Below, in pieces: positions 2,389 through 21,961 of a stretch of 64,000 nt of DNA. How positions within the stretch are numbered: position 1 is the stretch's first letter; the number at the start of each line of letters is the position of its first letter. Source of the DNA: Wenzhouxiangellaceae bacterium. Its GTDB lineage: Bacteria; Pseudomonadota; Gammaproteobacteria; Xanthomonadales; Wenzhouxiangellaceae. Under the pieces are notes generated by a model. That model was given only the letters and a program-made list of their open reading frames with translations, searched no databases and had not been told where the DNA came from. The stretch spans positions 101-64,100 of the forward strand of contig JBBDSL010000004.1 in assembly GCA_040904965.1 (NCBI GenBank), written 5' to 3'. A program made the position numbers and the translations under genes.

Positions 2389-2477
2389 TGCGGCATCTCC
2401 CTCGTGCGGTCTGCGAGCGTTCGGTCTGCGTGTCCCCCTATTGTGCCCAATCCGCCGCGGATGCGGGCCCCGACAGC

Positions 2478-2572: not shown

Positions 2573-2727
2573 CATTTCCGCCTCTCCCCCGTCATTCCCG
2601 CTCCTCCATCCGTCATTCCCGCTCCCCCACCCGTCATTCCCGCGAAGGCGGGAATCTCGAGAATTCCCCACCGATGCTCGAAACAGGCGCATGAACAATC
2701 GCCGACTTGCAAGAAGAGGCGTTCCGG
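2570..2727. repeat. three tandem 20-21-nt units (cgtcattcccgc+pyrimidine run) followed by copy A of a ~96-nt hairpin element
   Basis: Units start at 2570, 2590 and 2611. Copy A (2632-2727) begins cgtcATTCCCgcgaaggcGGGAATctcgagaat, which has the form ATTCCC-N8-GGGAAT. Confidence 0.8.
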
Positions 2728-2781
2728 GACCGGACCCCAACATTGCATAAATTTTCGGGCCGGAATCGCTACGCTGCCCAG

Positions 2782-2913
2782 CACTCCCGCTTCCCCCATC
2801 ACTCCCGCCTCTCCCCCCGTCATTCCCGCGAAGGCGGGAATCTCGAGAATCCCCCACCGATGCTCGAAACAGGCGCATGACCAACCGCCGACTTGCAAGA
2901 AGAGGCATTCCGG
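2782..2913. repeat. copy B of the ~96-nt hairpin element with its pyrimidine-rich leader
   Basis: 2818-2913 is near-identical to 2632-2727 (cgtcattcccgcgaaggcgggaatctcgagaat.ccccaccgatgctcgaaacaggcgcatga.caa.cgccgacttgcaagaagaggc.ttccgg). Confidence 0.85.
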
Positions 2914-2981
2914 CACTAGAATCAATCGAAGGGCAGCATTCCAAAAGGGGGTGTCACCAAATGCGCAACCAACGCCAGCCG

Positions 2982-3176
2982 TCAAACCAGGCCGTCCAGC
3001 GGACTTCTCGCACCAAGCGCGCCGCGTCGAACGACATGCGTGTAAATCATGGTCGTGCGCACATCGGAATGCCCCGCCTCATTCTGGATCGAAGGCGCAC
3101 AATGCCGCTCGGCAGCCAGATAGCTCAAGAATGTCGTCACCGGAAAAAATCTGACCTGGCATCGAAAATCAAAGGA
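2982..3176 (-). pseudogene. intI: integron integrase remnant (internal deletion; no start codon)
   Basis: The minus-strand frame reads [63 protein letters not shown]. The tail matches the IntI C-terminus (IntI1: [31 protein letters not shown]). The [9 protein letters not shown]..S.QNEA part looks like the N-terminal core-binding region fused directly to it. Confidence 0.8.
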
Positions 3177-3264
3177 TTAGGCGGTAAAGAAATGTCGACA
3201 GGCGTGATAAAAGAGCAGATCGGTCGTTTATTCGAGAAAAACTCTTTTCGCCACATATTTTTTA

Positions 3265-3271
3265 GTTAGGC
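3265..3271 (+). other. attI-like crossover core GTTAGGC
   Basis: A GTTRRRY core lies 8 nt upstream of the first cassette ORF, between the intI remnant and cassette 1. Confidence 0.5.
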
Positions 3272-3278
3272 AAAAATC

Positions 3279-3818
3279 GTGATGAGTGCCTTTATACAGA
3301 TAGTCGAAATTCTTGTATGGCCCGCTACCGTCATAATTGTAGTGATACTGCTTCGTTCTCCGTTGTCGGAGTTGGTCCCTACATTGAATAAGCTTAAATA
3401 TAAAGATCTTGAGCTAGAGTTTGAAAAGGAAGCAAGGGGCATTCTAGCTGATGCCGAGCGGGATCTGCCGGATCCGCCGAAGCCTGAGCCGTCAGAGGTT
3501 GAGGATCACGGAATAAGGTTTAGCCTTGCTCGCCTAGAGCCTTCGACTGAGATACTGGAGTCGTGGCGTCACTTGGAGTTAAAGCTACGCGAGCTGTCTG
3601 GTGGGAATGAGAGAAAGCGCAGCACGGGATATTTGGTTCGCGAACTTGCCAATGAGGGCAGAATATCTAAGGAGACAGAGAGCGTAGTGCTTTCGCTGTC
3701 ATCCCTTAGGAATAAAGTGGCACATACTGATGAAGAGGTAATATCTCGCGCAGCTTCATCATCGTTCAAAGATTCTGTTGCTCGTGTTATTTCAGCTCTG
3801 GAGTCCGAGAGTGCCTAA
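3279..3818 (+). CDS. cassette 1: N-terminal TM helix plus HEPN/DUF4145-like C-terminal domain
   Basis: 179 aa. It has a hydrophobic N-terminus (IVEILVWPATVIIVVILL) and a C-terminal LSSLRNKVAHTD, which fits the HEPN Rx4-6H motif. The TAA stop lies inside the attC core gcctaac. Confidence 0.6.
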   Translation: MMSAFIQIVEILVWPATVIIVVILLRSPLSELVPTLNKLKYKDLELEFEKEARGILADAERDLPDPPKPEPSEVEDHGIRFSLARLEPSTEILESWRHLELKLRELSGGNERKRSTGYLVRELANEGRISKETESVVLSLSSLRNKVAHTDEEVISRAASSSFKDSVARVISALESESA

Positions 3819-3890
3819 CAAAGCCATGAAATCCGCTCCCTACGGTCGCCGGACCTCGTTTCACTCGGCCGTTTATGGCAGGCGTTGGGC
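3813..3890 (+). other. attC site 1
   Basis: gcctaac-aaagccat...atggcaggc-gttgggc. The two ends are inverted complements with RYYYAAC and GTTRRRY cores. Confidence 0.75.
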
Positions 3891-3928
3891 GATTCATAAG
3901 AGCCGGTTAGAGTCAGAGGCGACCTATT

Positions 3929-4840
3929 GTGGACAATGGTAGGTATTCAGACCAACACACGCTTCAGTTTACTGAACATCGATGGTGGGAAAAGGTATTC
4001 GATTACCTTCGTTTCTTGATCCGTCAAGCCCCACTTTTTTTGGCTGTCGCAGCCTCGTTCTGGGCAGCTAGTGAAATCGCGATGGAAGCAACTGGGAACC
4101 GTATTCCCCTTTCGTATCTTGCAACATTTGTTTTGCTAGCTGCCGCTGCTATATCCGCTAGCCAGGCCTTTTTTCAATATAGGTCTTACACTCCGGAGAC
4201 GTTGATCGGCGAAAGCCGGCGCGTAAAAGCCATATTCCGAGAACGGAAGTGCGGCTGGCAGTGTTCTTTAGCCCGTGCGATGCTAAAAGACCGCATTGAA
4301 AAGACAGAGGAACGTCTTGAACGTATGAACCGGGGAGTTGCTTTTGTACCCCCGAAACATCTCAGTTTGTCCGAATATACAAAATGGATGCATCAAAGAA
4401 ACGAAGCAATCGTCCGGATCCTACGAGCCGTTGCGAGTTCCTGCACAAGTACACTCCCGGAAGCTTTAGCTAGAACGATTGATGAACAAAGCATTGGGGT
4501 TTTAAAGTTCGAAGTAGAAGAGCTCTCGAGTCTATATGATCATGCTGAGCGAATCGAACGTGAGTGCATAGAAATAGTCCCATCTGAAGGGATGGAGGAA
4601 CTTCATGCGTTGACTCGTGGGTGGACCAAGCCAATCAGAGATGGCGTCCTTGAATTGACAAAAATTCTGAAGCAGCTGAGCGAAATCAAAAGGAAAGACA
4701 TAAAGACTGGCGGAGTAGAATTACCAGAATTTAATATTCAGTTCGAGTCCCCAAAATGCATCTCGGAATTTACTGAGAGGCTACAAAGTTTAGATGCATC
4801 CGAAATCGCCCAACAAAATGCTCAAGCGGACGCGGGTTAA
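3929..4840 (+). CDS. cassette 2: hypothetical protein with two N-terminal TM helices and a helical C-terminal region
   Basis: 303 aa with a GTG start. The TM segments are APLFLAVAASFWAASEIAM and LSYLATFVLLAAAAISASQAFF. I recognised no family. Confidence 0.55.
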   Translation: MDNGRYSDQHTLQFTEHRWWEKVFDYLRFLIRQAPLFLAVAASFWAASEIAMEATGNRIPLSYLATFVLLAAAAISASQAFFQYRSYTPETLIGESRRVKAIFRERKCGWQCSLARAMLKDRIEKTEERLERMNRGVAFVPPKHLSLSEYTKWMHQRNEAIVRILRAVASSCTSTLPEALARTIDEQSIGVLKFEVEELSSLYDHAERIERECIEIVPSEGMEELHALTRGWTKPIRDGVLELTKILKQLSEIKRKDIKTGGVELPEFNIQFESPKCISEFTERLQSLDASEIAQQNAQADAG

Positions 4841-4901
4841 CTCTTGGGCCGGCGAGGCCGGGCACGCTTCGTGGCCACGCCGCTTAGCATAAACGTTATG
4901 C
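4835..4901 (+). other. attC site 2 (degenerate cores)
   Basis: ggttaac...cataaac-gttatgc. Inner arms gggccggcgaggcc and ggccacgccgc pair. The stop TAA is inside the first core. Confidence 0.55.
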
Positions 4902-4987
4902 GCCAATTTCAACGCACCGATCTGTTTTTGGAGGGTGATTTCGTCCACTGAATCGTTCTTAGGAAAACCCACAAATGGAGAACGAGT

Positions 4988-5269
4988 ATGGAGATTAAGA
5001 AGGACAACAAGGGGCAGCCCTTCATCGAATGGGAGCAGGCGCCCGGAGGCTACAAACGAGCTTGGATACAACACAAGGATCCCTCATCAGACAAGAATTG
5101 GGCGGATGTTCCAAGCGGGCGCTATTTAAACGTGGTTCGTATTGAGGAGCTAGGCGGCGGACCGGCGGGGAACGCTACCGACTTTCCGATATTCTCTGCA
5201 CTTGATGATGATCAGATTCTAACCGCATTTGTCGTATCCGTTTCAGCAATAACAGGTTGCAAGTTATGA
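4988..5269 (+). CDS. cassette 3: small hypothetical protein
   Basis: 93-aa ORF in a cassette bounded by attC2 and attC3. No family recognised. Confidence 0.45.
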   Translation: MEIKKDNKGQPFIEWEQAPGGYKRAWIQHKDPSSDKNWADVPSGRYLNVVRIEELGGGPAGNATDFPIFSALDDDQILTAFVVSVSAITGCKL

Positions 5270-5279
5270 AGAGGGGTGC

Positions 5280-5378
5280 GCTTAACATGAAGTTGAAGCT
5301 GCCCAAGGAACCTGTCACGCGGCTTGCTTACGCAACCCGCGAGCCAGAACCGCTTGGCAGCTTAACTTTGTGTTAAGG
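5280..5378 (+). other. attC site 3
   Basis: gcttaacatgaagttgaagctgcccaagg ... ccgcttggcagcttaactttgtgttaagg. The long arms are inverted complements. Confidence 0.75.
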
Positions 5379-5388
5379 CTACAAGTGT

Positions 5389-6066
5389 ATGGAAGATACA
5401 TTGTATAAAAAGTTGAGATACACAAAGCGCTGGTTCTCCTATTTCGATCTTCTAGGATTCGCGCAGCTTGTTAGAACTAGCGAAATAAACAGTGTTCTCC
5501 CTATTTATGAAAAGGTCCTAGAGACGATTGAGGAAAAGGCTGGGCAAAAAAAACCAAGAGGTCTTAGCTATTCGTGGTTCTCTGACACATTTATTATTTT
5601 CACCAGAGGAAGCTCCCTCGAAGAGTTCGGGCTAATAGAGCAAGCGGCACGACTCTTCTTTCAGAGGCTAATTTTGCACAAAATTCCAGTCCGAGGGGCA
5701 ATATCTTACGGCGACCTATATACCCAGCAAGAGAAAAATATCTTTCTTGGTGAGGCTTTGATGGATGCTTACGAATACGGAGAAGAGCAAAATTGGTTAA
5801 ATTTTGTAATTTCTCCCTCGGCAGCAAAGGCATTAGATACATTGGGCTTTCCAATGAGCGAGAGGGTTCACTATCGAATGGTAGAAAAGAAGGGGGTAAT
5901 TACTCATCCGGGCAACAAAGAGGTTTATGCATATGCTTTCAATAATGGTACGGTAAACGGAATTAACCCTCTGCTTAAATCACTTCACGCCATGAAAGAA
6001 TCATCGCCTAAGATCCAGAAAATAAAGTATGAAAATACAATTGAATTTATTGAGCGGCATGCGTAG
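5389..6066 (+). CDS. cassette 4: minimal nucleotidyl-cyclase-like (class III cyclase/GGDEF/mCpol-type palm) protein
   Basis: 225 aa. The three palm-fold motifs appear in order: YFDLLGFAQL (metal Asp), YSWFSDTFIIFT (second acidic hairpin) and IPVRGAISYGDLY (RxGxxxG strand). Confidence 0.5.
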   Translation: MEDTLYKKLRYTKRWFSYFDLLGFAQLVRTSEINSVLPIYEKVLETIEEKAGQKKPRGLSYSWFSDTFIIFTRGSSLEEFGLIEQAARLFFQRLILHKIPVRGAISYGDLYTQQEKNIFLGEALMDAYEYGEEQNWLNFVISPSAAKALDTLGFPMSERVHYRMVEKKGVITHPGNKEVYAYAFNNGTVNGINPLLKSLHAMKESSPKIQKIKYENTIEFIERHA

Positions 6067-6071
6067 GAAAG

Positions 6072-6131
6072 CCTTGACAAGTCAAAGCACACGGCCGCAG
6101 CAAAGCTGCGCCGGTGTTTGAGGCGTTAGGT
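6072..6131 (+). other. attC site 4 (short)
   Basis: ccttgac-aagtcaaagcacac ... gtgtttgaggc-gttaggt. 60 nt; the second core is consensus. Confidence 0.6.
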
Positions 6132-6138
6132 AACTGCA

Positions 6139-6609
6139 ATGGGTCGAGAATACTGCATTTGCCCGCCAAAGCTCACTACTCTTGAATCTGGTGACACTCC
6201 GACAATTGTCACAAAAGCCTCTCCCTGGACACACCGCAAAGCAGTCGAAAAACTGGCTAGATACTTTCGTCGAGAGTTCAAATATGATTTCGTGCCATTT
6301 CGTGCTGAATACGGGCAATCAGCCGATGATCCACACTATGAAGCCTATCTATTCCACGAGACTCGGTACAATCTTTTATACGAAGACCGCGATACAGAAG
6401 TTGTTTGCGGCGGGGCAGCCTGCTTTTTCCGCACTGTGGAAACCTGGTCTTTAAACTGGGTATGGTTCCATCCATACTTTCGTGGCCGAGGGTTGTTGTG
6501 GAAGTCCTGGGGGAGTTTTCGGTCCAGATATGGAGACTTTCAGATTGAAGAACCCCTGTCGCCGGCAATGAAAAGCTTTCTTAGCAAAATTGAAGGGCCA
6601 ATTAGCTAA
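6139..6609 (+). CDS. cassette 5: GNAT-like acetyltransferase
   Basis: 156 aa. WVWFHPYFRGRGLLWKSW resembles the GNAT motif A (R/Q-x-x-G-x-G/A). Confidence 0.5.
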   Translation: MGREYCICPPKLTTLESGDTPTIVTKASPWTHRKAVEKLARYFRREFKYDFVPFRAEYGQSADDPHYEAYLFHETRYNLLYEDRDTEVVCGGAACFFRTVETWSLNWVWFHPYFRGRGLLWKSWGSFRSRYGDFQIEEPLSPAMKSFLSKIEGPIS

Positions 6610-6666
6610 CGAGTTAGGATAGGTCGTGCGAGCGCAGCGAGCCACGACCTGATCCGGTTGTTGAAC
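6604..6666 (+). other. attC site 5 (homologous to the site at 16536-16594)
   Basis: agctaac...ggtcgtg-cgagcgcagcgagc-cacgacc...gttgaac. The stop TAA is inside the first core. Confidence 0.5.
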
Positions 6667-6878
6667 AAGCCCGGTCGTGATGCTGAGGGGTTCTTTATTT
6701 GCAAACAATTCCGTTTGCTTTTTGGCGGGTAACCGCGTAGCGCGACACGATGTCTTTTTTTAGGGCAAGCGCGGCTGTTGGCTTGTTTCCAAGCCAGTGC
6801 AATCAGGCGGTTTTGTCCATGGATACTTACCTGTCCTCCATGTCAAGCGGGCCGAGGTCTACGCCGTGCCGCTGTGTT

Positions 6879-7067
6879 CTATCCGGGTTGCCAGTGACCG
6901 CGGATGATTGATGCGACTCGCATGGGTTCGCCACAGCCGGGACAGGCGGGCGTGGACCGTTTCGGTCCGACCGGGAACGCAAGTGTGACATGCAGGATCA
7001 ACTGCACCAGCCCAAGCAGCTTTTTGGCGTTGCCATGCAGGAAGCCATAGCCCCGCACCCGCCGGAA
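6879..7067 (-). pseudogene. IS91-family (Y2 rolling-circle) transposase C-terminal fragment
   Basis: FRRVRGYGFLHGNAKKLLG....CPGCGEPMRVASIIRG matches the conserved tail of IS91 transposases (R.YG.LAN.. then the CxxCG zinc motif). Confidence 0.55.
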
Positions 7068-7274
7068 GCTTTGGCCACCTGATTTACTGCCGCGTCGTAG
7101 CGAGGGGCAGTCAGGTGCCGTGGATGGGGTGTTTCGCGACCGAGTGGACCGGAGGCGTAGCCGTAGCTTCGGTGAGGATCCGCGACCGAGCGAAAGGGCG
7201 CAGACGCGGTGACTGGCGGGGCCGTAGCAGACGTGGCGGTGAATTGGGTGGCCCAGGCAATACATGTTGAAGGA

Positions 7275-7379
7275 TCAGACACAGGAAGCCGAGGCCCGAC
7301 CGCGCGTGCCCTGCAGTTTCAGGACCCGAAGGTGTTTACCGTACAGCTCGTCGAAGCGTTTTTGCTCGGATTTGTTCAT
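7275..7379 (-). pseudogene. N-terminal fragment of an IS91-associated tyrosine recombinase
   Basis: MNKSEQKRFDELYGKHLRVLKLQG then a stop. A second, similar fragment (FDELYRKHVRAL) lies at about 16117-16190. The two share the junction aatacatgttgaag. Confidence 0.4.
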
Positions 7380-7578
7380 GGTAGACTTCTTGAAAACGCG
7401 CCCCGATTGGGCGCTCATCAAGGGTTACACAGGATGAATGGGGTTTTCTGCCGCGCAGCGGCTTCGTTCAACAAATCGTCGAGTCACTCAATTACAAACT
7501 GAAAACCGGAAGACGGCGGATGATTGCCAAAACACTGGGTCCCGGCAAGTGATCGCGTATTTCGAGCATGACCAATAC

Positions 7579-8460
7579 TTACTTTACTTTCGTGCAGGTC
7601 AGGGTGAGCGTGTTTCCGGAGCCCGAAACGTGACAGTCCAATCCAGAGCCTGTGCCGCCAATCCTGTCGGCCAAAGCCTCAAGAGCAAGCGCGTTTCCAG
7701 GACCTTGTCCAAAGCCCAAGCGAATACCATTAAACTCAGTAGTCGCTATGGGAACGCTGCCGTTATCCTGTTGACCTTGCACCGGAATCAAATTGCCATC
7801 CGCGTCGAGGACTTCAATCTCGACAAGCGTCCCATCGGGCAATCTGACTAACGACACGCGGCTACCATCATCATAGGAAACTATGATAATCAAACTACGC
7901 TTTCTTATGGTATTTCCTACACCTCCGCTTAGTCCTCCAATCGGAGTGTCGACTCCAAGATCGCGGCTCACAGATTCAAAATCCGGCAGATAGCCATTAT
8001 CTTCCAGATGCAATCGGATCTGCGAAAAATACGATGCACGCAGTCTACCATCGCTTATATCTCGGACTACGGACGAAGGTACATCCGTCCCCAGCAAAAC
8101 CCCCGAAAGGTCCGACCTGGAAATTGGCGCAACAAGCCGACTTGCGTCCTGTACGGCTTGCTGAAATACACTCTTCTCGGTAACCGGGAAATCGGCGGTA
8201 ACTACCTCGGTCCATTGTACGACGCCGGTATCAAAATCCTCCAAAAATGTCCAACGGTTGTATTTCCGCGTCTCGTTGGTTTCACGATTGGTCACATAGA
8301 TCGGCGTATAACTTCCCGGCGCATTAAGCGCCTGGTGTCTGAACGCGGTATCGGTTGTGCACGAATCGCACAATACCCACCACGCTGAGGATGCAAATAC
8401 ACTTCCTGGAATCGAAAGCCAGATTCCAAGCCACACAATAGCCGTTAGAGTTCTTCTCAT
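7579..8460 (-). CDS. secreted hypothetical protein (signal peptide), in opposite orientation to the array
   Basis: 293 aa with the leader MRRTLTAIVWLGIWLSIPGSVFASS. No family recognised. Confidence 0.55.
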   Translation of the reverse strand: MRRTLTAIVWLGIWLSIPGSVFASSAWWVLCDSCTTDTAFRHQALNAPGSYTPIYVTNRETNETRKYNRWTFLEDFDTGVVQWTEVVTADFPVTEKSVFQQAVQDASRLVAPISRSDLSGVLLGTDVPSSVVRDISDGRLRASYFSQIRLHLEDNGYLPDFESVSRDLGVDTPIGGLSGGVGNTIRKRSLIIIVSYDDGSRVSLVRLPDGTLVEIEVLDADGNLIPVQGQQDNGSVPIATTEFNGIRLGFGQGPGNALALEALADRIGGTGSGLDCHVSGSGNTLTLTCTKVK

Positions 8461-8964
8461 TGATATTCAATTTCGCCAAAATTCGAACCGCGCACCCCTA
8501 TACCCGGATGGGTACGGCATATATTGCCACCCTCTCAATGTGTTGTCAACATCAAATCGGAAATGAGAGTGACGGCACACAAACCGGCGCCGACCGCAGC
8601 CACGAACAGACCGAACGGCGCACTAAGTGAAAATGCGCCAAATGATCAATTAGACAGTCACGTCTTAGAGGAGACTGTACCAGTCGGATTTGGGTCAACG
8701 CGGTAGTCGAATCTTTGAAGTTTCAGATGCCAGGCCGTTTTTTCGCGCCCTTGGCGGATACAACCAGGAAATCCTCCGATCCAATGCACACGAAATCTGG
8801 CATCAAGGCCATTTGCTTGTCCAAAGTTGGTGAAATGGGTTATCGGCCAGGCGAGAACAGCATTGCCGCGGCGGTCTGACCTTTGAGGAAGGCTTTCTCA
8901 AAGTGTTCGGCGCACGCTTTGAGCTTGTCCAGAGCGCCGAGTGCATTGGCAAATCCGGATTTGG

Positions 8965-8980
8965 GTAGGAAAATTCCTAC
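8965..8980. repeat. 16-nt motif GTAGGAAAATTCCTAC (also 58370-58385 and, inverted, 58391-58406)
   Basis: Exact string match at three places. The half-sites GTAGGAA/TTCCTAC are inverted. Confidence 0.7.
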
Positions 8981-9160
8981 GAAGTGGGTGTCTAGACTGC
9001 CGCTAGACTCCCGGGTGAGACTCCCGGGTGCTTGAAGCCCTGAATGCAATCCATATTACTGGCGGATGAATACCCGCTGGATCAAGGCTATTGCCACCGT
9101 ACAATTTTTGAGGCATGATGCTCAGGAGACAAGGGTCTTTACTAGAAGGGGAGTCAGGCA

Positions 9161-9481
9161 ATGGATCGGCGTTCATTTGTAAAAACAGTAAGCATTTCCT
9201 CGTTTATGGTGACCCTGAGTCCCCTTCTCGCCGGCTCGCTTCCTCACGTTTTAGTCAAACAACAACGCTCCCCGAAATCACTGGCGACCACCATCATGGC
9301 GGAATTCGGGCCGGGATTTAAAGTCTTCGAGTATCGAAAGATCGACGGTATGCATCATGCAACCATCGGTCATCTGGGTAACGAGTACCGCGTCTGTTCC
9401 GCCGATTTACGTGCATGGACGATTCTGTCTTACGATGTTCCGGAGGCTGGGGCCGGCAGTAACCGGAAGCGGCTGGTCTAA
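9161..9481 (+). CDS. small protein with twin-arginine (Tat) leader
   Basis: 106 aa. MDRRSFVKTVSISSFMVTLSPLLAG fits S/T-R-R-x-F-x-K followed by an h-region. A GGGGAG RBS lies upstream, and the gene sits directly upstream of the lodA-like gene. Confidence 0.55.
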   Translation: MDRRSFVKTVSISSFMVTLSPLLAGSLPHVLVKQQRSPKSLATTIMAEFGPGFKVFEYRKIDGMHHATIGHLGNEYRVCSADLRAWTILSYDVPEAGAGSNRKRLV

Positions 9482-9560
9482 TGGCCCATTAACAAAAAAG
9501 AGGCCCAGTTTCAGTTACACGTGGGCGCTTGTCCGACAGGGGCGATTAAAGGGAAGAGAC

Positions 9561-11555: not shown

Positions 11556-11580
11556 TGGGCGACTGGTAGCCGCTGCCTTC

Positions 11581-15491: not shown

Positions 15492-15812
15492 GCGCTACGC
15501 ACATGGCGGGCTGATTCGTTTGACGTGGGCACCCACCTCCCAAGATGCTCGCGGGCATAGCGCGACAGCAGCGGTTCAATCCGTGGAATCTTCGGGTTTG
15601 TGAAGAAGGAAGCTGTACGTTTGGCCAATTTCTGCTCAGTTGTGCGAACTGCGGACACGACAACCCTGACCGGGTGGTCATGAGAGGTTGGTTCGAACGA
15701 TTGGTAGGGTTCAGCCCGGGCTGAACAGCGCTGCGGCGCAGTTTGCCCTTTCAGGAAGGCGCGGCCAAATTGATGGGCGAGGGGTTGTAAAGAAGCGTTT
15801 CCTGAAACACGT

Positions 15813-15819
15813 ACATAAC
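15813..15819 (+). other. orphan attC first core (ACATAAC) abutting an IS remnant
   Basis: acataac-gaa-ttagattctatgttggacgtcaagc. The same junction architecture occurs at 20543 (gtctaac-gaa-gcagattctatgttggaagtcaagc). Confidence 0.5.
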
Positions 15820-15841
15820 GAATTAGATTCTATGTTGGACG

Positions 15842-16105
15842 TCAAGCGACTTTTCGCTGACTTGGATCGAACTGCTCGCCGTTTTTCATCAGAGCGAACG
15901 CAATCCGGATCAGTTTGCGTCCCAGAACAATATAGGCTTGGGTGGACTTCATTCCGCGATCCGCGAACCGCTCCAGGTAAGGCTTGAAACCGAAGCGTTC
16001 CGCGGCGGCTCTGGCCGCATTGAAAATGAGTCGCTGATACTTGCGGTGGCCCTTTTTTTGTCCAGTTTGCGCCGGCCAGCGAGTCGGGAGACCCAAGTAA
16101 TACAT
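15842..16105 (-). pseudogene. IS110/IS1111-family transposase C-terminal remnant
   Basis: KKGHRKYQRLIFNAARAAAERFGFKPYLERFADRGMKSTQAYIVLGRKLIRIAFALMKNGEQFD resembles the Transposase_20 tail. About 270 nt are near-identical to 20556-20830. Confidence 0.6.
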
Positions 16106-16193
16106 GTTGAAGAATCAGCCACCGGAAACCCGCCCGCCCGGGCGTCCTTTCAATTCAGGGCCCGCACGTGCTTGCGGTACAGCTCGTCGAAGC

Positions 16194-16313
16194 ATTATTG
16201 AGCTAGCTAAGAATTTCGGTTACAGTCGGAAGCAGCTGAGGGAAATTGAGGCCCTTATTGAGGAACATTACGATGAGCTCATTGGTGCATGGCAAGAGCA
16301 CTTCGGCAGTTGA
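16194..16313 (+). pseudogene. DUF4160-like gene, 5'-truncated
   Basis: Only the C-terminal IIELAKNFGYSRKQLREIEALIEEHYDELIGAWQEHFGS remains. The upstream part is replaced by IS/recombinase debris. Confidence 0.4.
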
Positions 16314-16581
16314 AGTGACTAATATCTCGACTTTTGGGATCTGGCTCTTGGTCCGAGAAAAAGAGCTGTTTTTGGCGTACGAAGATTTTCCCTGGTTCAA
16401 GGACCGGCCAGTCAGAGAAATTCTAAATGTAGAGGAGCCGCAACCCGAACATTTCTACTGGCCTGAGTTGGATGTGGACCTCACACAAGAGACCATCGAA
16501 CATCCCGAGCGGTTTCCAAATCGGGCGAAGCACATAGCGAATAAGGGTAGATCGCGCGAGAGCAGCGAGCCGCGATCTTAA
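16273..16581 (+). CDS. DUF2442 domain protein
   Basis: Start trimmed to MSSLVHG. The sequence FGIWLLVREKELFLAYEDFPWFKDRPVREILNVEEPQPEHFYWPELDVDL matches the DUF2442 pattern (fPWl...W..lDvDl). This protein is the usual partner of DUF4160. Confidence 0.65.
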   Translation: MSSLVHGKSTSAVEVTNISTFGIWLLVREKELFLAYEDFPWFKDRPVREILNVEEPQPEHFYWPELDVDLTQETIEHPERFPNRAKHIANKGRSRESSEPRS

Positions 16582-16594
16582 CCGGTGGTTGAAC
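16536..16594 (+). other. attC-like site homologous to attC5
   Basis: gatcgcg-cgagagcagcgagc-cgcgatc...gttgaac. The stem differs from attC5 (ggtcgtg/cacgacc) but still pairs, and the same loop and 3' flank follow. Confidence 0.45.
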
Positions 16595-16657
16595 AAGCCC
16601 GGTCGTGATGGTTAGACGTTATGTTTTCTCACGGTGAATTTGAGGTAAAATCGCGGT

Positions 16658-16900
16658 ATGGCTAATATCACCCAAATTGAACGAGAGTTGCTAGGTCTCC
16701 CTGCCGCCGAACGAGAACGACTTGCTCTTAGAGCATGGGAGAGCCTGGTTGAAAGTGAAGAGGCGGCGTCTGATCCCAATATTGATCCGGACGGCCTCGA
16801 ACTAGCCAACGAGCGCGACAAGGAGCTGGAGCGTGGAGAAGTGGATGCAGTAGAAGAGAAAGAATTCCGCCGTTGGACGGGCGGAATGAATGAAGGTTGA
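16658..16900 (+). CDS. addiction-module antitoxin (TIGR02574-like)
   Basis: 80 aa. ELLGLPAAERERLALRAWESL followed by an acidic tail. It overlaps the toxin gene start. Confidence 0.6.
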   Translation: MANITQIERELLGLPAAERERLALRAWESLVESEEAASDPNIDPDGLELANERDKELERGEVDAVEEKEFRRWTGGMNEG

Positions 16901-17183
16901 GTATCATCCAAGTACCATCACCGATTTAAACCGCGCACTCGACTTCTACGAACAGAAACGGATTGGACTCGGTGGCGAGCTCCGGGAGGAAATCTATCAG
17001 ACAATTTCACGTATCGCCGCAAACCCCCTTATCTATCGCCCCATTGCAGGGCAGATGAGACGTTGTTTTGTGCATCGCTTTCCCTTCTCCATCCTGTACC
17101 GGGTTGTAGACGCCGATTTGCTTCGAGTGTTGGTCATCCGACATCATCGTCAGCATTCGCAGTTTGGTATGGAGCGGAGATGA
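16890..17183 (+). CDS. parE: RelE/ParE-family type II toxin
   Basis: 97 aa with ...NPLIYRPIAG..RRCFVHRFPFSILYRVVDADLLRVLVIRHHRQH, the typical ParE/RelE layout. Confidence 0.7.
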   Translation: MKVEYHPSTITDLNRALDFYEQKRIGLGGELREEIYQTISRIAANPLIYRPIAGQMRRCFVHRFPFSILYRVVDADLLRVLVIRHHRQHSQFGMERR

Positions 17184-17231
17184 GAGTGTGGAGAGTCGGG
17201 TCTTGTTTCATGCACCAAGCCGGCCGCAGAC

Positions 17232-17440
17232 ATGAAGCAAGACACCGAACTATCCGCGTGGCCCACTGGAGCGCGCCAGTACGGATTTCTGGCCAACCGT
17301 TGCCGCAGGCGAAAACGGGCGTGCGGGCTGCGCTGGCGCGGGATGAAGCACCCAGGGCAAGGAAAGACACGGACCGGCCACCGACACCGGTGGAACTGCC
17401 TTGCCGGGTCTGTGGCAAAGGACGCCTGATTGCAGAGCCC
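17232..17440 (+). pseudogene. frameshifted IS91-family transposase C-terminal fragment
   Basis: One frame gives ARQYGFLANRCRRRK; the next gives PPTPVELPCRVCGKGRLI (the CxxCG zinc motif). Confidence 0.45.
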
Positions 17441-17469
17441 CCGGACACCCACGGCCGCAGTTTCGAGGT

Positions 17470-17496
17470 AAAAGCGTTCCCGCGGGAACGCTTTTT
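17470..17496 (+). terminator. perfect 13+13 palindrome followed by a T-run (terminator or IS91 end hairpin)
   Basis: aaaagcgttcccg|cgggaacgctttt then t. Confidence 0.5.
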
Positions 17497-18007
17497 GAAT
17501 CGAAATCATTCTCATCGGTACAGCCAATGCAGGGCGCCAGACGATACGCAAGCACTTTTCCGCGATCCGGCCCTGGCGGGGTAGACCTCCCGGGTAGCTG
17601 CCTGGACCGGCCAGACGAGTGCCAACGAAGACGGGCCTGGCACCGGCCCCGGCCGAGCTCGGCTCGGTGCTGGAATCCTGAGTCAGGATCGGGTACATTG
17701 AGCTTAGGAGCCTGTCGGGCTTAAAACTGATCTACTGCGGCAAAGCCGGATTGGGCCAGATTCTCCGCTCTGTTTCGCTAAATAGGCCCACTATTGGCCT
17801 CAAAGGACCGAAAAATCTGACTCCAACCGGCTTTCCCTCGCTACGATCGGTTAACTCAGACAGGCTCCTGGACAAGCCATTCGAGGCATGGGGAAATGCG
17901 AAAATGAACGCGAACGCCAAACCGTCGGCCCGGATGTCTCCCGACACCGGCACCGCTGCGACCGGCGCAGAATTGCTTGTAAGTTATAAGCCAGGGAGAG
18001 AAGTAAT

Positions 18008-18646
18008 TTGCACCACGTGATGTTTGATGTTGATGGCACATTAGTAATGTCAGACGAGTTTGACGGCAGTTGTTATCTTGAAGCCGTGTATGAAGTTCTA
18101 GGCCATAGCCTGGATACCAATTGGAAGAAGTACACTTATGTAAGTGACGCGGGCATCCTTGATCAGCATATACGCGAAAGTGGGCTTGACGATAGAAAAG
18201 AGGAGATCCTCGCAGATGTCAAAGGAGCGTTTATCGAAAAAATTTCTAACTACCTGAAAGATAACCCAGTGCAGCAGGTTTCCGGCGCCTCCAAATTCCT
18301 GATCGAGCTACAGCAAGTAGCGAATCTAACTCTATCAATTGCTACTGGGGGGTGGCGCGAGACAGCCCTGATGAAACTAGAGGCGGCTGATATTGACGTC
18401 AGAGATATCCCTATCGCATCATCGAACAATCACTATGCGCGAACCGAAATAATGAAAATTGCTAGAGAAAAAGCCGTTGGCAACAATGAAGTTCCTTGCA
18501 CATATTTCGGAGACGGGGAATGGGACAAGATAGCTTGCCAAGAACTGGGCTTCAATTTCGTGTCAATTGGTGAAAGAACATACCATTACCAGAATATCAA
18601 GGACTTCAGTAATGCAAGGCAGGCAATGGCGTTCATCGGCTTATAG
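18008..18646 (+). CDS. HAD-superfamily hydrolase cassette
   Basis: 212 aa with MFDVDGTL (DxDGT motif I), SIATGG (motif II-like) and YFGDGEWD (motif IV). The true start may be the ATG at 18020. Confidence 0.7.
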   Translation: MHHVMFDVDGTLVMSDEFDGSCYLEAVYEVLGHSLDTNWKKYTYVSDAGILDQHIRESGLDDRKEEILADVKGAFIEKISNYLKDNPVQQVSGASKFLIELQQVANLTLSIATGGWRETALMKLEAADIDVRDIPIASSNNHYARTEIMKIAREKAVGNNEVPCTYFGDGEWDKIACQELGFNFVSIGERTYHYQNIKDFSNARQAMAFIGL

Positions 18647-18712
18647 CAAGCGCATGCAGTCGGACAAAGTGCCCGCTACGCGCACCTTGCGGCTGATGCG
18701 ATGCGTTTGCAC
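18643..18712 (+). other. attC-like imperfect palindrome (non-consensus cores)
   Basis: gcaagcgcatgcagtc pairs with ctgatgcgatgcgtttgc. Confidence 0.35.
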
Positions 18713-18722
18713 TTGAGAGATT

Positions 18723-19076
18723 ATGGGACCTTCAGCATCCTGGATAAATGACTGGAAGATCGGAATATCCTCCGTCAGGGAGCGCGAGGCCGGCCGAGAA
18801 TTGCTGGATATTTTTCGGCGATTCTGGCATTGGACTGAACTTGATCGAAAGTCGAAAAGCACTCAGCAAAGATATAGTAGCGCGCTACATGCCCTCGGTG
18901 GCTGGGCTGTCGAGAAAGCAATAGAAAGTGATAAACCGATTGATGCTCGTCAGCAACTCATTGAAGCAACCGCTGCCGGCGATGGACCCCTGATCTATTT
19001 GGATAGAGAAGAATGGCAAAAAGAATTGGATATGGTTTGCCGAAAGCTCCACAAATTTCTGGCATCGTGGTGTTAA
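18723..19076 (+). CDS. cassette hypothetical protein
   Basis: 117-aa ORF. No family recognised. Confidence 0.4.
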   Translation: MGPSASWINDWKIGISSVREREAGRELLDIFRRFWHWTELDRKSKSTQQRYSSALHALGGWAVEKAIESDKPIDARQQLIEATAAGDGPLIYLDREEWQKELDMVCRKLHKFLASWC

Positions 19077-19084
19077 TTTCAAGT

Positions 19085-19131
19085 GGGGGGGCTTAACCGA
19101 GCTCTGCTGTTGTTGTAAGTCGCCAAGCCCC
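19085..19131 (+). other. short attC-like hairpin (first core GCTTAAC; second core mutated to CCAAGCC)
   Basis: ggggggcttaaccgagc...gtcgccaagcccc. Confidence 0.4.
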
Positions 19132-19139
19132 GGATCAGA

Positions 19140-19285
19140 CCACGGAGGAAACAGCATGCGGTATTCGCCTGAAGCTCACGCTCGCGCGAAAGCGAGTACA
19201 ACCGAGGAACCGGATGCGGGAAAACCGCACGTCCGGGTCTGTGCGGGGGCGCCGGGTAACCGGCGTTCCTGCCGCGAGATGTGTA
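19140..19285 (+). pseudogene. possible 3' remnant of a group II intron (domain V-like hairpin at 19207-19239)
   Basis: GAACCGGAUGCGG-GAAAA-CCGCA[CG]UCCGGGUC gives two 5-bp helices separated by a 2-nt CG bulge on the 3' strand, as in domain V. The AGC triad position reads AAC. A GC-rich hairpin with a GTAA loop follows. Confidence 0.35.
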
Positions 19286-19368
19286 AAAAGAAGCCATGAA
19301 TCGAAAACAGTTTATACAAAGCCTTGGCGCAACTTGTTCCAATTGGAATTGGAGTTGGTCATTTATCA

Positions 19369-20028
19369 ATGAAAAAAAAAGAAATTATCTTTGGTGTTTG
19401 GGACGACCGAGCAATTGGGGATAACTGGCTAATATTTACCTATGATTGGGAGCGAAATGAAAAAGGAGAAGAAAATAAAGGCTTTCAGCAATCTAGAGAT
19501 CATTTAACGTTCATAGAAAATGAAGGGTATGAGCTGTTTGTTTTCAGAATGTTCGCCGTTGAGGGTAGCGCACCCGTAAAGATAAAAGGCTTTGAAAGAA
19601 AGCTTCTCCCCAAAAAACTATTGCGGTGTGGCAATAGTTGGTATGCCACAGATACAGAAACAAATCTCCTACCCGAAGAAGTACAAGACTTAGAAAATGA
19701 ATATCTTGAAGGCGCCAAAAGCACAATTACAGTGAATAGCTATGAGCGAAACATGGTAGCTAGAGAGAGATGTATCAATCATTTTGGATGTCATTGTTCT
19801 GTATGTGGGTTTGATTTTGAAAAATATTACGGCGTACTAGGCGCTAACTATATTCATATCCATCATTTAATTCCCCTAAATCAAATAAAAAAAGAATATT
19901 CAGTAGATCCAATCCAAGACTTGGTTCCAGTATGTCCCAACTGTCATGCAATGATCCATAAGGGCAGAAAGACAATCTCGATTGAAGAGTTCAGAAATCA
20001 TATTACCAATGCAAGAAAAAACACATAA
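19369..20028 (+). CDS. HNH endonuclease-domain cassette protein
   Basis: Start trimmed to MKKKEIIF. The C-terminus is NSYERNMVARERCINHFGCHCSVCGFDF..YIHIHHLIPL..DLVPVCPNCHAMIH. Confidence 0.7.
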   Translation: MKKKEIIFGVWDDRAIGDNWLIFTYDWERNEKGEENKGFQQSRDHLTFIENEGYELFVFRMFAVEGSAPVKIKGFERKLLPKKLLRCGNSWYATDTETNLLPEEVQDLENEYLEGAKSTITVNSYERNMVARERCINHFGCHCSVCGFDFEKYYGVLGANYIHIHHLIPLNQIKKEYSVDPIQDLVPVCPNCHAMIHKGRKTISIEEFRNHITNARKNT

Positions 20029-20092
20029 CAATTACAGTCAGCAGGACAAACCTACGCTACGCTCCGGTTTGCCTCTGCTGTAGGCGTTAGAC
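20023..20092 (+). other. attC site
   Basis: acataac-aattacagtcagcagg ... cctctgctgtaggc-gttagac. The stop TAA is inside the first core. Confidence 0.75.
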
Positions 20093-20107
20093 CTCACTGG
20101 AGAAGAA

Positions 20108-20536
20108 ATGCGTAATTCAATTATGTTCGTCACAATGGCCTTATTCTGTGCTCCTTTCGTTCATTCACAGGAGCCAGTGTCACCCAATGTCCGCACGGTT
20201 GAGCGGTTTGTCGCAGCATTCAATGCGCACGACAGTGGAGCCATGGCAGAATTCGTTGCAGACGATGTCGCCTGGTTGAGTATCACTGGCAAAGATGTGG
20301 CTGTGGAGGTTATGGGCAAGAGTGAGCTAGTTGCAAGCATGAACGCTTATTTAGAATCATGTCCAACGTGCCAATCAGAATTATCCGGAACCATATCTAC
20401 TCCTGGCAGGGTTAGCGCCATTGAGGTCGCAAGTTGGCAGGGCAAGAGTGGGTCAAGGTCCCAGAGGAGTATCTCCGTGTATGAGTTTTCAGAGGGCGTG
20501 ATTCAACGTGTCTATTACTTCCCCTCGGAAAATTAG
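20108..20536 (+). CDS. SnoaL/NTF2-like cassette protein with signal peptide
   Basis: 142 aa with the leader MFVTMALFCAPFVHSQ and VERFVAAFNAHDSGAMAEFVADDVAW. Confidence 0.6.
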   Translation: MRNSIMFVTMALFCAPFVHSQEPVSPNVRTVERFVAAFNAHDSGAMAEFVADDVAWLSITGKDVAVEVMGKSELVASMNAYLESCPTCQSELSGTISTPGRVSAIEVASWQGKSGSRSQRSISVYEFSEGVIQRVYYFPSEN

Positions 20537-20542
20537 GGTGAC

Positions 20543-20549
20543 GTCTAAC
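20543..20549 (+). other. attC first core (GTCTAAC) interrupted by an IS remnant
   Basis: Lies 7 nt after the cassette stop and is followed directly by the IS110-like terminal sequence. Confidence 0.5.
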
Positions 20550-20571
20550 GAAGCAGATTCTATGTTGGAAG

Positions 20572-20976
20572 TCAAGCTGTTTTGAGCCGATTTGGATCGA
20601 ACTGCTCGCCGTTTTTCATCAGAGAGAACGCAATCCGGATCAGTTTGCGTCCCAGAGCAATATAGGCTTCGGCGGACTTCACTCCGCGATCTTTGAACCG
20701 CTCCAGGTATGGCTTGAAACGGAAGCGCCCGGCGGCTCTGGACGCATTGAAAATCAGTCGCCGATACTCGGCGTTGCCCTTTTTGGTTGGCTTGCGCTGG
20801 AGGAGCGCGTGCCCCGACCAGGATCGACTGCGATGCGAAGGCTTTGATTCAATATCGCGCGTGGTCCCGGCTGGAATACGGCCGGGACCTGTGCGGTTCG
20901 TTCCCCCATGACTTACGGACGGAGTTTGCTGGGAAGTTCGACTGGTTGCGTGGCGGAGATGGCATTGCAGAAGCAC
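20572..20976 (-). pseudogene. IS110/IS1111-family transposase remnant (longer copy)
   Basis: ...WSGHALLQRKPTKKGNAEYRRLIFNASRAAGRFRFKPYLERFKDRGVKSAEAYIALGRKLIRIAFSLMKNGEQFD. No intact N-terminal DEDD domain. Confidence 0.6.
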
Positions 20977-21000
20977 TTTTCGACCTTGAACTGGATCCCG

Positions 21001-21336
21001 TCATCCAAGGTCCCAGCTCCCGGTGCCTCCGGACATGTAATTTGCGGGACCGGTTGCGATTGGCCTGGTTGTCATCAAGTCCGGAAATGTCCCTTTGCAA
21101 AACCGCCCCGGATTCCCGCCCGCCAATGTGCTGGAGAAATAGCTCATGGCGCTGAACACTTTACAACGGTCCAGATCAGAAACTCCGTTGCAGTTCCAGG
21201 CGCTGAAGTTGAAATACTGAGAAATTTCGGCACTGCCCCAGCTTTGGGTATTTATCACCGAGATTTTCCCACTGTGACACCAAGGTAGTGCTTGGGCTGG
21301 CGAAGCCACTATCAGCAGTGCAAAATAACACAACAA
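21001..21336 (-). CDS. possible small secreted protein (3' part may be fused to IS debris)
   Basis: 111 aa with the leader MLCYFALLIVASPAQA. The AT-rich 5' half runs into GC-rich sequence. Confidence 0.3.
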   Translation of the reverse strand: MLCYFALLIVASPAQALPWCHSGKISVINTQSWGSAEISQYFNFSAWNCNGVSDLDRCKVFSAMSYFSSTLAGGNPGRFCKGTFPDLMTTRPIATGPANYMSGGTGSWDLG

Positions 21337-21511
21337 GGTACTAAAGAAACGGATATTTATTATTGATCTCCAATTGGAAGAAAACCGCCCTGTGGGCGGG
21401 CCAGCACATTAACTGACTATTTTTAGTAACGTTGGAGTCCCGGATTTACCTCACCGGGGGGCGGAGAACCGGCGTTCCTGCCGCGAGAGGTATCAGAATC
21501 GAGTTCGCCAT

Positions 21512-21907
21512 ATGGCAAAACCATTCCACCTTTCTTTTGTTGTTCCCGACTTGGAGGCCGCTACATCCTTTTACATTAGCGTTCTTGGTTGCGGTATTGG
21601 CCGAGATGCTGGCGCCTGGGTAGATATCCTTCTATTCGGCCATCAACTTACAATTCACCAAGAGCAAGATAATTTAGTTGCAGTCGCAATTGATCACTTC
21701 GGTCCGGTGCTTTCTAAATCTGAATGGCTTGCTCTTTCAGAGCGTGTAACGTCTCATCAAGTTAATTTTCAAGTGCCACCTCAAGTCAAGAACGAGGGCG
21801 CCGAGGGAGAAACTGGAAAGTTCATCCTTAGTGACCCTGCAGGTAATAATCTTGAGTTTAAATACTATAAAAATTTCAAAGGTACCGTCGGTGAAGCTGA
21901 TGTGTGA
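21512..21907 (+). CDS. VOC (glyoxalase/bleomycin-resistance/dioxygenase) family cassette protein
   Basis: 131 aa. MAKPFHLSFVVPDLEAATSFYISVLG ... NNLEFKYY. Confidence 0.65.
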   Translation: MAKPFHLSFVVPDLEAATSFYISVLGCGIGRDAGAWVDILLFGHQLTIHQEQDNLVAVAIDHFGPVLSKSEWLALSERVTSHQVNFQVPPQVKNEGAEGETGKFILSDPAGNNLEFKYYKNFKGTVGEADV

Positions 21908-21961
21908 ATCCCGTGCGTAATCAGGTCGGCATTTCGGACTGAAACCGGTCGCCGTTATGGT

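Follow-up and report, generated by a model that had tools for sequence, protein, structure and literature searches.

An integrase remnant, an attI core and a decayed cassette array in an uncultured Wenzhouxiangellaceae bacterium

Introduction

Clusters of integron recombination sites (attC) without an integrase, known as CALIN, were described in the IntegronFinder survey, as were integrase (intI) pseudogenes beside them and their disruption by insertion sequences (IS) (Cury et al. 2016, PMC4889954). Here we describe a locus of this kind in a stretch of 64,000 nucleotides, hereafter the window, which makes up nearly all of a 64,183-bp contig (JBBDSL010000004.1) of a metagenome-assembled Wenzhouxiangellaceae genome (GCA_040904965.1; locus tags WD397_). 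The source organism is an uncultured salt-lake gammaproteobacterium. Positions 2460-21961 of the window very probably represent a horizontally acquired island that is the remnant of a chromosomal integron, with an intI pseudogene, an attI crossover core and about twelve cassettes, interrupted by dead mobile elements and an operon. An earlier note on this DNA had proposed a chromosomal integron with an integrase destroyed by deletion and a continuous 19-kb array of plus-strand cassettes; the core of that proposal stands, and the extent of the array has to be revised, since 6.7-16.2 kb holds no cassettes and about half of the 19 kb consists of them.

Like CALIN, the island has same-strand attC clusters without a functional intI, an intI pseudogene within 10 kb, IS in or beside the array, and mostly unknown cassettes. 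It differs in that the 4-kb clustering rule would give two clusters here, at 3813-6131 (four plus-strand sites) and 18641-20092 (two), in that its pseudogene is too short for the criterion of more than 50% profile coverage, and in that its attI can be identified by comparison with intact relatives.

Chromosomal integrons of the Xanthomonas type, reportedly described with inactivated intI genes by Gillings et al. in 2005, are said to occupy a fixed locus, to have an integrase decayed by deletion or frameshift and to carry lineage-specific cassettes. The island resembles them in these respects. Unlike them, it has heterogeneous attC sites (60-99 nt, resembling different class 1 types) rather than a homogeneous repeat, and the locus is empty in two relatives.

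Boundaries of the island

The guanine-plus-cytosine (GC) fraction drops at about 3.0-3.5 kb, from 0.62-0.67 to 0.45-0.50, and is back at 0.68 at about 22.0 kb, in keeping with the composition changes that the earlier note had placed at about 3.18 and 21.96 kb. The flanks have 64-67% GC, compared with 0.43-0.61 between about 3.0 and 22.0 kb. To the left lies a gene for an NAD-dependent epimerase (1438-2388, minus strand), and the right flank is formed by a conserved 354-aa gene (21962-23026, minus strand). In two related genomes, L003 and L004, homologues of the epimerase (79% amino-acid identity) lie only 107-115 bp from the homologue of the 354-aa gene. Nothing intervenes between the two flanking genes at these syntenic loci, and GC shows no dip there. 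Homology with both genomes stops on the left just past a conserved CTATTGTGCCCAATCCGC at 2438-2455 and on the right 1-2 nt past the stop codon at 21962-21964. Because the flanking genes are adjacent in both relatives, the segment at about 2460-21961 (19.5 kb) is, by this comparison, an island relative to L003 and L004. The earlier note had suggested looking in related genomes for an intact intI and for cassette turnover; in these two the locus is empty, with neither intI nor cassettes.

The left junction was reproduced at 100% identity in two independent per-run assemblies (L001 and L002, 98-2655), and a further independent assembly (L112) is 100% identical over 2820-3891, which includes the deleted integrase. 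Neither the left junction nor the deleted integrase is thus an artefact of the genome assembly. No tRNA gene was found in 1-26 kb, and no direct repeats were seen at the island junctions in the comparison with L003 and L004.

Integrase remnant and attI

The integrase end of the array consists of two features.

2982-3140, minus strand: intI pseudogene of 52 codons, identified by TIGR02249, PDB 2a3v and tblastn
3141-3271, plus strand: remaining attI region, identified by a motif common to L031 and L032 and by BLASTN

The best family match of the minus-strand frame is the integron integrase model TIGR02249 (E=3.7e-12 over positions 281-315 of the 315 in the profile; 46 bits, the cutoff being 265), and its best solved structure is that of VchIntIA (PDB 2a3v, E=4e-8). 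A metagenome scan retrieved integrons with intact, closely related intI genes. The reference among these was the L031 protein, with 320 residues and a TIGR02249 score of 439 bits (cutoff 265). When this protein was compared with the window by tblastn, residues 50-71 matched 3140-3075 (73% identity, E=6e-6) and the C-terminal 30 or so residues matched 3074-2988. The earlier note had called an intI remnant on this strand and had held that failure to align with IntI would count against its reading; two separate stretches of the remnant match genuine IntI proteins at 73-86%. By these alignments, the remnant is an in-frame fusion of IntI residues 50-71 to about 291-320, with some 219 codons lost internally. 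Codons 1-49 are also missing. The loss of residues 72-290 removed most of the catalytic domain, together with the catalytic R-K-H-R residues and the ALERKYP patch that the L031 protein has, so the functional intI that a complete integron requires is absent from the island. A contiguous alignment was considered as an alternative, many tyrosine recombinases aligning across residues 3-51 at about 50%; the internal deletion was upheld by the tblastn match of residues 50-71 (73%) to the closest intact IntI. A tblastn search of the 64-kb window with the L031 protein found no second intI.

A conserved 25-nt motif, TTCGCCACATATTTTTTAGTTAGGC, lies at 3247-3271 and ends in the sequence GTTAGGC (3265-3271), which the earlier note had picked out as a crossover core. 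The same motif (TTCGCCACATATTTnnTAGTTA) immediately precedes the first cassettes of L031 and L032, both of which have an intact related intI, and BLASTN aligns 3195-3282 with L031 1289-1206. Given its equivalent place in these two integrons, GTTAGGC is the attI crossover core. The attI site adjoins intI and retains its GTT core, and its intI-proximal part is deleted. Judged by eye, the island keeps about 130 bp upstream of the core and has lost about 120 bp of intI-proximal intergenic DNA relative to L031; a second deletion appears, again by eye, to have taken the 5' end of intI and the intI-proximal half of the intergenic region.

attC sites

Candidate attC sites were sought with a covariance model (R1) for which the only training data were eight class 1 attC sites, taken from clinical plasmids that were located by tblastn with IntI1, namely those of aac(6')-29a, blaVIM-2, arr-3, aacA4, dfrA5, aadB, aadA2 and aadA5. 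The whole window was searched on both strands (128 kb) with filters off. Six matches had E-values of 0.014 or less, all on the plus strand and all inside the island.

20023-20092, plus strand: 70 nt, 37.8 bits, E=1.2e-8, the best site; stop codon TAA in the first core
3813-3890, plus strand: 78 nt, 32.8 bits, E=4e-7; stop codon TAA within the core GCCTAAC
4808-4901, plus strand: 94 nt, 31.4 bits, E=1.2e-6; first core GCCCAAC inside the 3' end of the cassette's open reading frame (ORF)
5280-5378, plus strand: 99 nt, 30.8 bits, E=1.8e-6; fold z-score -6.8
18641-18711, plus strand: 71 nt, 20.2 bits, E=0.003; stop codon TAG in the first core
6072-6131, plus strand: 60 nt, 18 bits, E=0.014

Outside the island, R1 had no match below E=0.1 on either strand of the window. 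A second model (R2), for which 24 sites served as the training set, added no attC in the window to these six. As controls, R1 recovered plasmid attC sites on which it had not been trained, all 15 of its matches in six related metagenomic loci lay upstream of intI on the strand opposite to it, and it had no match in the empty syntenic loci of L003 and L004. At least two same-strand sites less than 4 kb apart make a cluster, and the island holds four sites at 3813-6131 and two at 18641-20092, with R1 E-values from 1e-8 to 0.014.

The six sites have little sequence in common. Their L helix is kept by two-sided changes in six of nine pairs, with 83% of cells paired as against 29-46% when the partner is slid by one to three columns, and none of 500 shuffles reached their covariation score; the alignment was fitted to the model, so these pair counts lean towards structure. 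All six have R''/R' cores of the form RYYYAAC/GTTRRRY, a spacer, an L''/L' helix and extrahelical bases. Folded as bottom-strand DNA, they show an R box, an unpaired spacer, an L stem and single-base bulges on the expected arm, 4808-4901 among them. The L boxes of the site at 3813 resemble those of the arr-3 attC, and the site at 5280 resembles the blaVIM-2 attC. From the model, the six sites appear structurally intact and could serve an integrase supplied in trans.

The pattern RYYYAAC...GTTRRRY by itself carries no such information. A home-made scan for AAC...GTT with R-box complementarity and an anchored stem alignment was dropped, since at no threshold did it separate the island from the GC-rich flanks; the pattern alone therefore does no better than chance, and it is the full structural model that discriminates. 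Rfam gave no attC family match, and no gathering-level match anywhere in the window.

The sites of the earlier note fared unevenly against the model. Four were recovered at their exact coordinates (3813-3890, 5280-5378, 6072-6131 and 20023-20092), a fifth runs from 4808 to 4901 rather than from 4835, and a sixth, at 6604-6666, has no plus-strand match. Folding of bottom strands, which the earlier note had proposed as a check, agrees, with bulges on the expected arm in the six model-supported sites and on the opposite arm at 6604-6666. The weaker sites that it mentioned elsewhere were not found by R1 or R2, the only other canonical site in the island being the one at 18641-18711, which it had not listed. 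It had also counted five TAA stop codons within first cores. There are really two to four: TAA at 3813 and 20023, one more at the ambiguous 6604, and TAG at 18641, and the GGTTAAC at 4835 is not the core.

Gene cassettes

Cassette-like DNA is limited to about 3.27-6.69 kb and about 16.2-21.96 kb, with roughly twelve cassettes in all. The first eleven are as follows.

3272-3890, plus strand: cassette 1, ORF 3279-3818 (179 aa, no family match) and attC 3813-3890
3891-4901, plus strand: cassette 2, ORF 3929-4840 (303 aa, no known family) and attC 4808-4901
4902-5378, plus strand: cassette 3, ORF 4988-5269 (93 aa, no known family) and attC 5280-5378
5379-6131, plus strand: cassette 4, ORF 5389-6066 (225 aa) and attC 6072-6131
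6132-6682, plus strand: cassette 5, ORF 6139-6609 (156 aa, weak GNAT match), palindrome 6604-6666 and 16-nt tail 6667-6682
16201-16617, plus strand: cassette 6, DUF2442 ORF 16246-16581 (Pfam 1e-12), palindrome 16532-16594, 16-nt tail, and GTTAGAC at 16611-16617
16618-17990, plus strand: cassette 7, antitoxin 16658-16900 (Unstab_antitox 6e-5) and ParE-family toxin 16890-17183 (ParE_toxin 2e-9), no attC
17991-18711, plus strand: cassette 8, HAD-family hydrolase 18008-18646 (HAD_2 1e-9) and attC 18641-18711
18712-19290, plus strand: cassette 9, ORF 18723-19076 (117 aa, no known family), 3' part of the attC replaced by an element at 19205-19278 that resembles domains V and VI of group II introns (DV/DVI-like)
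19291-20092, plus strand: cassette 10, HNH endonuclease ORF 19324-20028 (234 aa; Pfam HNH 6e-9) and attC 20023-20092
20093-20800, plus strand: cassette 11, SnoaL-like ORF 20108-20536 (SnoaL_2 1e-9), attC cut by an IS110 remnant

The cassettes are promoterless-looking and lie on the plus strand, and there is no antibiotic-resistance gene among them. Neither cassette 1 nor cassette 4 has an ORF with a Pfam or PADLOC match, and the HNH ORF of cassette 10 has a weak PADLOC match to restriction-enzyme HNH domains.

Cassette 4 shows the mobility expected of a cassette. Its 225-aa ORF has 174 database homologues at E-values of 0.001 or less, in distant phyla (Methylophaga, Desulfatitalea, Sulfuriferula, Nitrospirae), and some UniRef members of the family are named guanylate cyclase domain-containing. 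The segment 5374-6131, which runs from the upstream attC crossover to the end of its own attC, has 74% nucleotide identity, boundary to boundary, to Methylophaga muralis (L024, 9987-10739), where an attC (26.7 bits) likewise terminates the copy. Other homologues belong to a long array of same-strand attC sites (L025 and L026), and one adjoins a divergent integrase (L027). By these alignments cassette 4 is demonstrably mobile, as an ORF-plus-attC unit that is found again in other arrays, the homology stopping at the cores. This comparison between arrays covered cassette 4.

The latter half of the array, at 16.2-21.96 kb, retains just two canonical attC sites. Cassette 6 has no canonical attC match by R1 or R2. 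The toxin-antitoxin pair of cassette 7 is followed by about 800 bp of GC-richer non-coding DNA with a perfect 26-nt palindrome (17470-17495), in which no ORF has a Pfam match. Part of this DNA (17330-17966, about 600 bp) shares 78-87% identity with L023 10941-11316 and has a further match in L036 (1695-1964), both of them decayed integron arrays.

Mobile-element debris

Elsewhere in the array the attC sites are cut or replaced by debris of antisense IS110-type, IS91-type and group-II-intron-like elements, and the losses of attC coincide with this debris. Two composite remnants stand at the edges of the segment without cassettes.

6683-7480, minus strand: IS91-family remnant, with a Y2-transposase C-terminus at 7067-6882 (in ORF 7265-6879) and a tyrosine-recombinase N-terminal fragment at about 7364-7290
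15813-16200, minus strand: attC first core ACATAAC (15813-15819) plus 5 nt, an IS110-family C-terminal remnant (15825-16099) and a second IS91-type recombinase N-terminal fragment (16100-16200)

The IS110-family remnant at 15825-16099 (NF033542, E=3.5e-6; tblastn of protein P0002, 65% identity, E=5e-31) comprises the last 90 or so transposase codons, antisense to the cassettes. A second one, also antisense, lies at 20555-20800 (NF033542, E=4.5e-7; tblastn, 80% identity, E=3e-37), where it cuts the attC of the SnoaL cassette 5 nt past the first core GTCTAAC (20543-20549). The two are 88% identical (over 20546-20784), and both begin 5 nt past an attC first core, as ACATAAC GAATT and GTCTAAC GAAGC. 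The IS110 fragment had no close or useful relative in a plasmid collection, and its homologues in protein databases (P0003-P0007) are only similarly short fragments.

An antisense IS near the 5' end of an attC has been described for attC-targeting IS (PMC3001079), and the remnants match these in position and orientation. The IS1111-attC group includes ISPa21, ISPst6 and ISKpn4 (Tetu and Holmes 2008, cited in PMC3001079 and PMC11187229). Like its members, the remnants have a DEDD-type (IS110/IS1111) transposase and lie antisense, a few nucleotides past the 5' core of an attC, in two places. IS1111-type elements have a downstream non-coding (seekRNA) region (PMC11187229). The remnants differ in that only the last 75-90 codons are left and in that such a downstream region is absent: the transposase stop codon is 17 nt from the end of the element, so the long non-coding region would be upstream, as in IS110 and unlike IS1111.

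The DV/DVI-like element at 19205-19278 (plus strand) matches Rfam RF00029 at 32.2 bits (gathering threshold 40; E=0.0055). A partial copy lies at 21456-21498 (plus strand), and a homologue in L090 (497-571) scores 31.2 bits. Both copies in the window are on the sense strand, just upstream of cassette ORFs. Compared with group IIC-attC introns, which insert into the attC bottom strand and so lie antisense to the cassettes, there is only the 74-nt DV/DVI-like part, on the sense strand and with a domain V catalytic triad that by eye is mutated and reads AAC; the element at 19205-19278 has no domains I-IV and no reverse-transcriptase ORF. We treat it as debris.

The palindromes of cassettes 5 and 6 differ from the canonical sites in polarity. 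The first (6604-6666, 63 nt; E=0.14 with R1, 0.016 with R2) and the second (16532-16594) score on the minus strand only, and in both the bulged base is on the opposite arm from that of the six canonical sites, on the 3' arm of the plus strand; neither is an attC in the orientation of the array. The region of the first is 77% identical to 16523-16627, with a conserved 16-nt tail, and further copies occur in three unrelated metagenomic arrays, L036 (1021-1240 and 2054-2302), L087 (5371-6575) and L023 (5869-5945). After the palindrome comes an IS91-family remnant, in the window as well as in L036 and L087; its 3' end abuts 5'-GTTC (5'-GTCC in L087) within the attC-like core. The remnant matches L087 and L036 by BLASTN, and tblastn of an L087 ORF (PF04986 Y2_Tnp, E=6e-9) aligns to the window at 54% identity (E=1e-13). 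The two recombinase fragments are also related, 16081-16200 being 77% identical to 7241-7364. IS91-family elements have a Y2 (HUH) transposase and a 5'-GTTC/CTTG tetranucleotide at the oriIS end; the 5'-GTTC target in this position is described in PMC13181058. Only the C-terminal 60 or so residues of the transposase are recognisable, by way of L087, and the GTTC at the 3' end is also part of the conserved palindrome. Complex class 1 integrons with ISCR1 (IS91 family) likewise have an IS91 element inside an integron beside non-cassette genes; the element here differs in being antisense, in carrying a tyrosine-recombinase gene, in abutting an attC-like core instead of the 3'-conserved segment, and in being a deletion remnant.

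The palindrome and the IS91-like element might represent an undescribed class of mobile elements associated with attC, a third one next to IS1111-attC and the group IIC-attC introns, although we consider this rather unlikely. Such an element could be an IS of the rolling-circle type with the GTTC of attC cores as its target, or else a unit of int, tnp and attC, an IS packaged as a cassette, that sits inverted. If it exists, it could explain the entry of the oxidase operon described below by one-ended transposition; a causal link between the IS91 element and that operon is conjecture.

The loci of L036 and L023 were also compared with each other. They are syntenic, with flanking genes at 72-82% nucleotide identity; in L036 intI is truncated to 129 codons (6985-7394), and in L023 only IS debris remains at 10000-11430. 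Decay of this integron lineage seems to recur.

The segment without cassettes

Between about 6.7 and 16.2 kb, a stretch of some 9.5 kb that splits the array, R1 and R2 found no plus-strand attC, and there are no cassettes. Besides the debris, the segment contains an orphan ORF and an operon.

7579-8460, minus strand: orphan ORF without a family match, its 293-aa product having an apparent signal peptide; no attC nearby by R1 or R2; not a cassette
9161-15491, plus strand: four-gene non-cassette operon, GC 0.58 versus 0.48-0.50 for the cassettes
9161-9481, plus strand: operon gene 1, small ORF with a twin-arginine-like signal by eye
9558-11555, plus strand: operon gene 2, LodA/GoxA-family CTQ oxidase (Pfam LodA_N 4e-42, LodA_C 7e-26)
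11581-12762, plus strand: operon gene 3, LodB/GoxB-type flavin maturase (NCBIfam GoxB/LodB)
12759-15491, plus strand: operon gene 4, 910-aa protein with five CxxCH haem motifs

The operon has the arrangement of LodA/GoxA operons, with LodA_N and LodA_C in the oxidase followed by a maturase gene. A protein identical to the oxidase is named LodA/GoxA family CTQ-dependent oxidase by NCBI, and the maturase scores about 200 bits with the GoxB/LodB models, under their equivalog cutoff of 400. All four genes occur together in L111, at 72-74% nucleotide identity, among ordinary chromosomal genes. The same genes in a non-cassette context are what the earlier note had named as evidence against its reading, and for this segment that evidence exists. 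The association of the haem protein with the LodA-family oxidase is conserved in L111 and is possibly of interest by itself.

Ends of the island

2460-2981, no strand assigned: left end, without homology to the 107-115 bp intergenic region of the relatives
20801-21961, no strand assigned: right end, with a reversed ORF, a DVI-like repeat and a glyoxalase/VOC gene, and no recognisable attC

Between the epimerase gene and the intI remnant, the left end holds two direct repeats of about 143 bp (2588-2730 and 2777-2916) that are 87% identical and contain REP-like palindromes (GTCATTCCCGCGAAGGCGGGAATC); the palindrome of these repeats reads GTCATTCCCGCGAAGGCGGGAATCTCGAG. A short plus-strand frame at about 2470-2560 (…ALAVLYSADLESTLETVQRRGAQIVKPIFS) looks by eye like the C-terminus of a protein of the glyoxalase/VOC type and is probably what remains of a gene at the island edge; the ORF that holds it has no Pfam match.

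In the right end, the reversed ORF (21001-21336, minus strand) encodes 111 aa, and the last cassette-like gene (21512-21907, plus strand) belongs to the glyoxalase/VOC family (Pfam Glyoxalase 4.5e-6). Neither R1 nor R2 matched an attC in 20801-21961, and ORFs in 6.7-9.3 kb, 17.2-18.0 kb and 20.8-21.5 kb had no match in Pfam, NCBIfam or PADLOC. An exact-protein look-up of the glyoxalase cassette, made in support of the right junction, found no record. The sequence GTTATGG (21954-21960) directly abuts the stop codon of the conserved 354-aa gene, the junction reading GTTATGG|TTCAG (21954-21965); the relatives read GACGTTCAGG there (about 9890-9900 in L003), so the empty site has a GTT. This would fit integrase-mediated recombination at a secondary site without showing it.

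Alternative explanations

An island without any integron, in which the palindromes are terminators or REP elements and the integrase remnant is a fragment of an unrelated tyrosine recombinase, would account for two observations: the loose scan finds as many "sites" per kilobase in the flanks as in the island, and the remnant has only 52 codons and scores far under the family cutoffs. This reading is as good as ruled out by the highly specific independent covariance model, by the best match of the remnant to integron integrases at 73-86% in two segments, by an attI motif common to intact integrons, and by one cassette unit common to another array. The continuous array of about 19 kb, with the LodA, LodB and cytochrome genes as part of it, can be constructed on paper as one giant cassette at 6.7-15.8 kb, with the attC-like 6604-6666 upstream of the operon and the first-core half ACATAAC (15813-15819) downstream. 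We consider it highly improbable. The segment has no plus-strand attC by either model, includes a minus-strand gene, is bordered by IS91 and IS110 debris at both ends and has a length of about 9 kb, compared with about 2 kb for the largest cassettes known (PMC4889954); moreover, its four-gene operon forms a unit among chromosomal genes in L111 and has a GC fraction of 0.58 as against 0.48-0.50.

It is less easy to dismiss an array that is still active, in which an intact IntI from another part of the genome, or from a plasmid, still excises and reshuffles the six cassettes with canonical attC, although this too is unlikely. All six sites have an intact structure in which the bulges are correctly placed, the ORFs of the cassettes have stayed open (the 225-aa ORF, the only one checked, is as long as its homologues), about half of integrase-less attC clusters are in genomes with an IntI elsewhere, and 20% of integron-bearing genomes have more than one integrase (PMC4889954). 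Against it stand the lack of a second intI in the window, an attI without its intI-proximal part, and the decay of every second attC site, a sign that selection on recombination may have been relaxed. The earlier note had expected the array to be frozen, a description that would hold only if the genome encodes no other IntI.

The preferred reading, a horizontally acquired remnant of a chromosomal integron, has points of its own against it. Gain in the window and loss in L003 and L004 cannot be told apart, these relatives being 79% identical (amino acids) in the flanking gene. Six of the roughly twelve cassettes, having lost a canonical attC or never had one, are without a model-supported site and owe their cassette status to position, size, strand and composition only, and the glyoxalase gene and the reversed ORF at 21001-21336 could be non-cassette DNA. 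R1 is a small home-made stand-in for the model of IntegronFinder, and its E-values are rough. A consensus scan of 2900-7000 found no sigma-70-like match on the plus strand that could be a cassette promoter (Pc), which is weak evidence either way; the usual Pc region lies within the deleted part.

Proposed history of the locus

On the reading as an integron remnant, we infer the order of events, the loss of mobility and the expression of the cassettes as follows. IntI would once have recombined attI with the folded bottom strands of attC sites and so have captured circular cassettes there. Two deletions would then have destroyed intI, one internal and in-frame, the other taking the 5' end and part of the intergenic region. 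After the loss of the integrase, IS insertion and IS-adjacent deletion may have eroded the recombination sites. With no integrase in cis, the cassettes would be expected to act like any other genes of the chromosome, as long as none comes from another source.

Significance

The locus does not change the understanding of integrons and is a well-preserved case of a process that has been described. It documents base by base the decay of an integron into integrase-less attC clusters, in which the attI core was spared, attC-targeting elements cut the sites and ordinary DNA was inserted, and intact sister integrons in metagenomes are available for comparison. It also contributes a small set of cassettes of unknown function, including a widespread cyclase-like family whose cassette 4 is mobile. 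A literature search on Wenzhouxiangella found no integron study. With this island, the Wenzhouxiangellaceae, a halophilic gammaproteobacterial family, appear to be added to the lineages that carry integrons.

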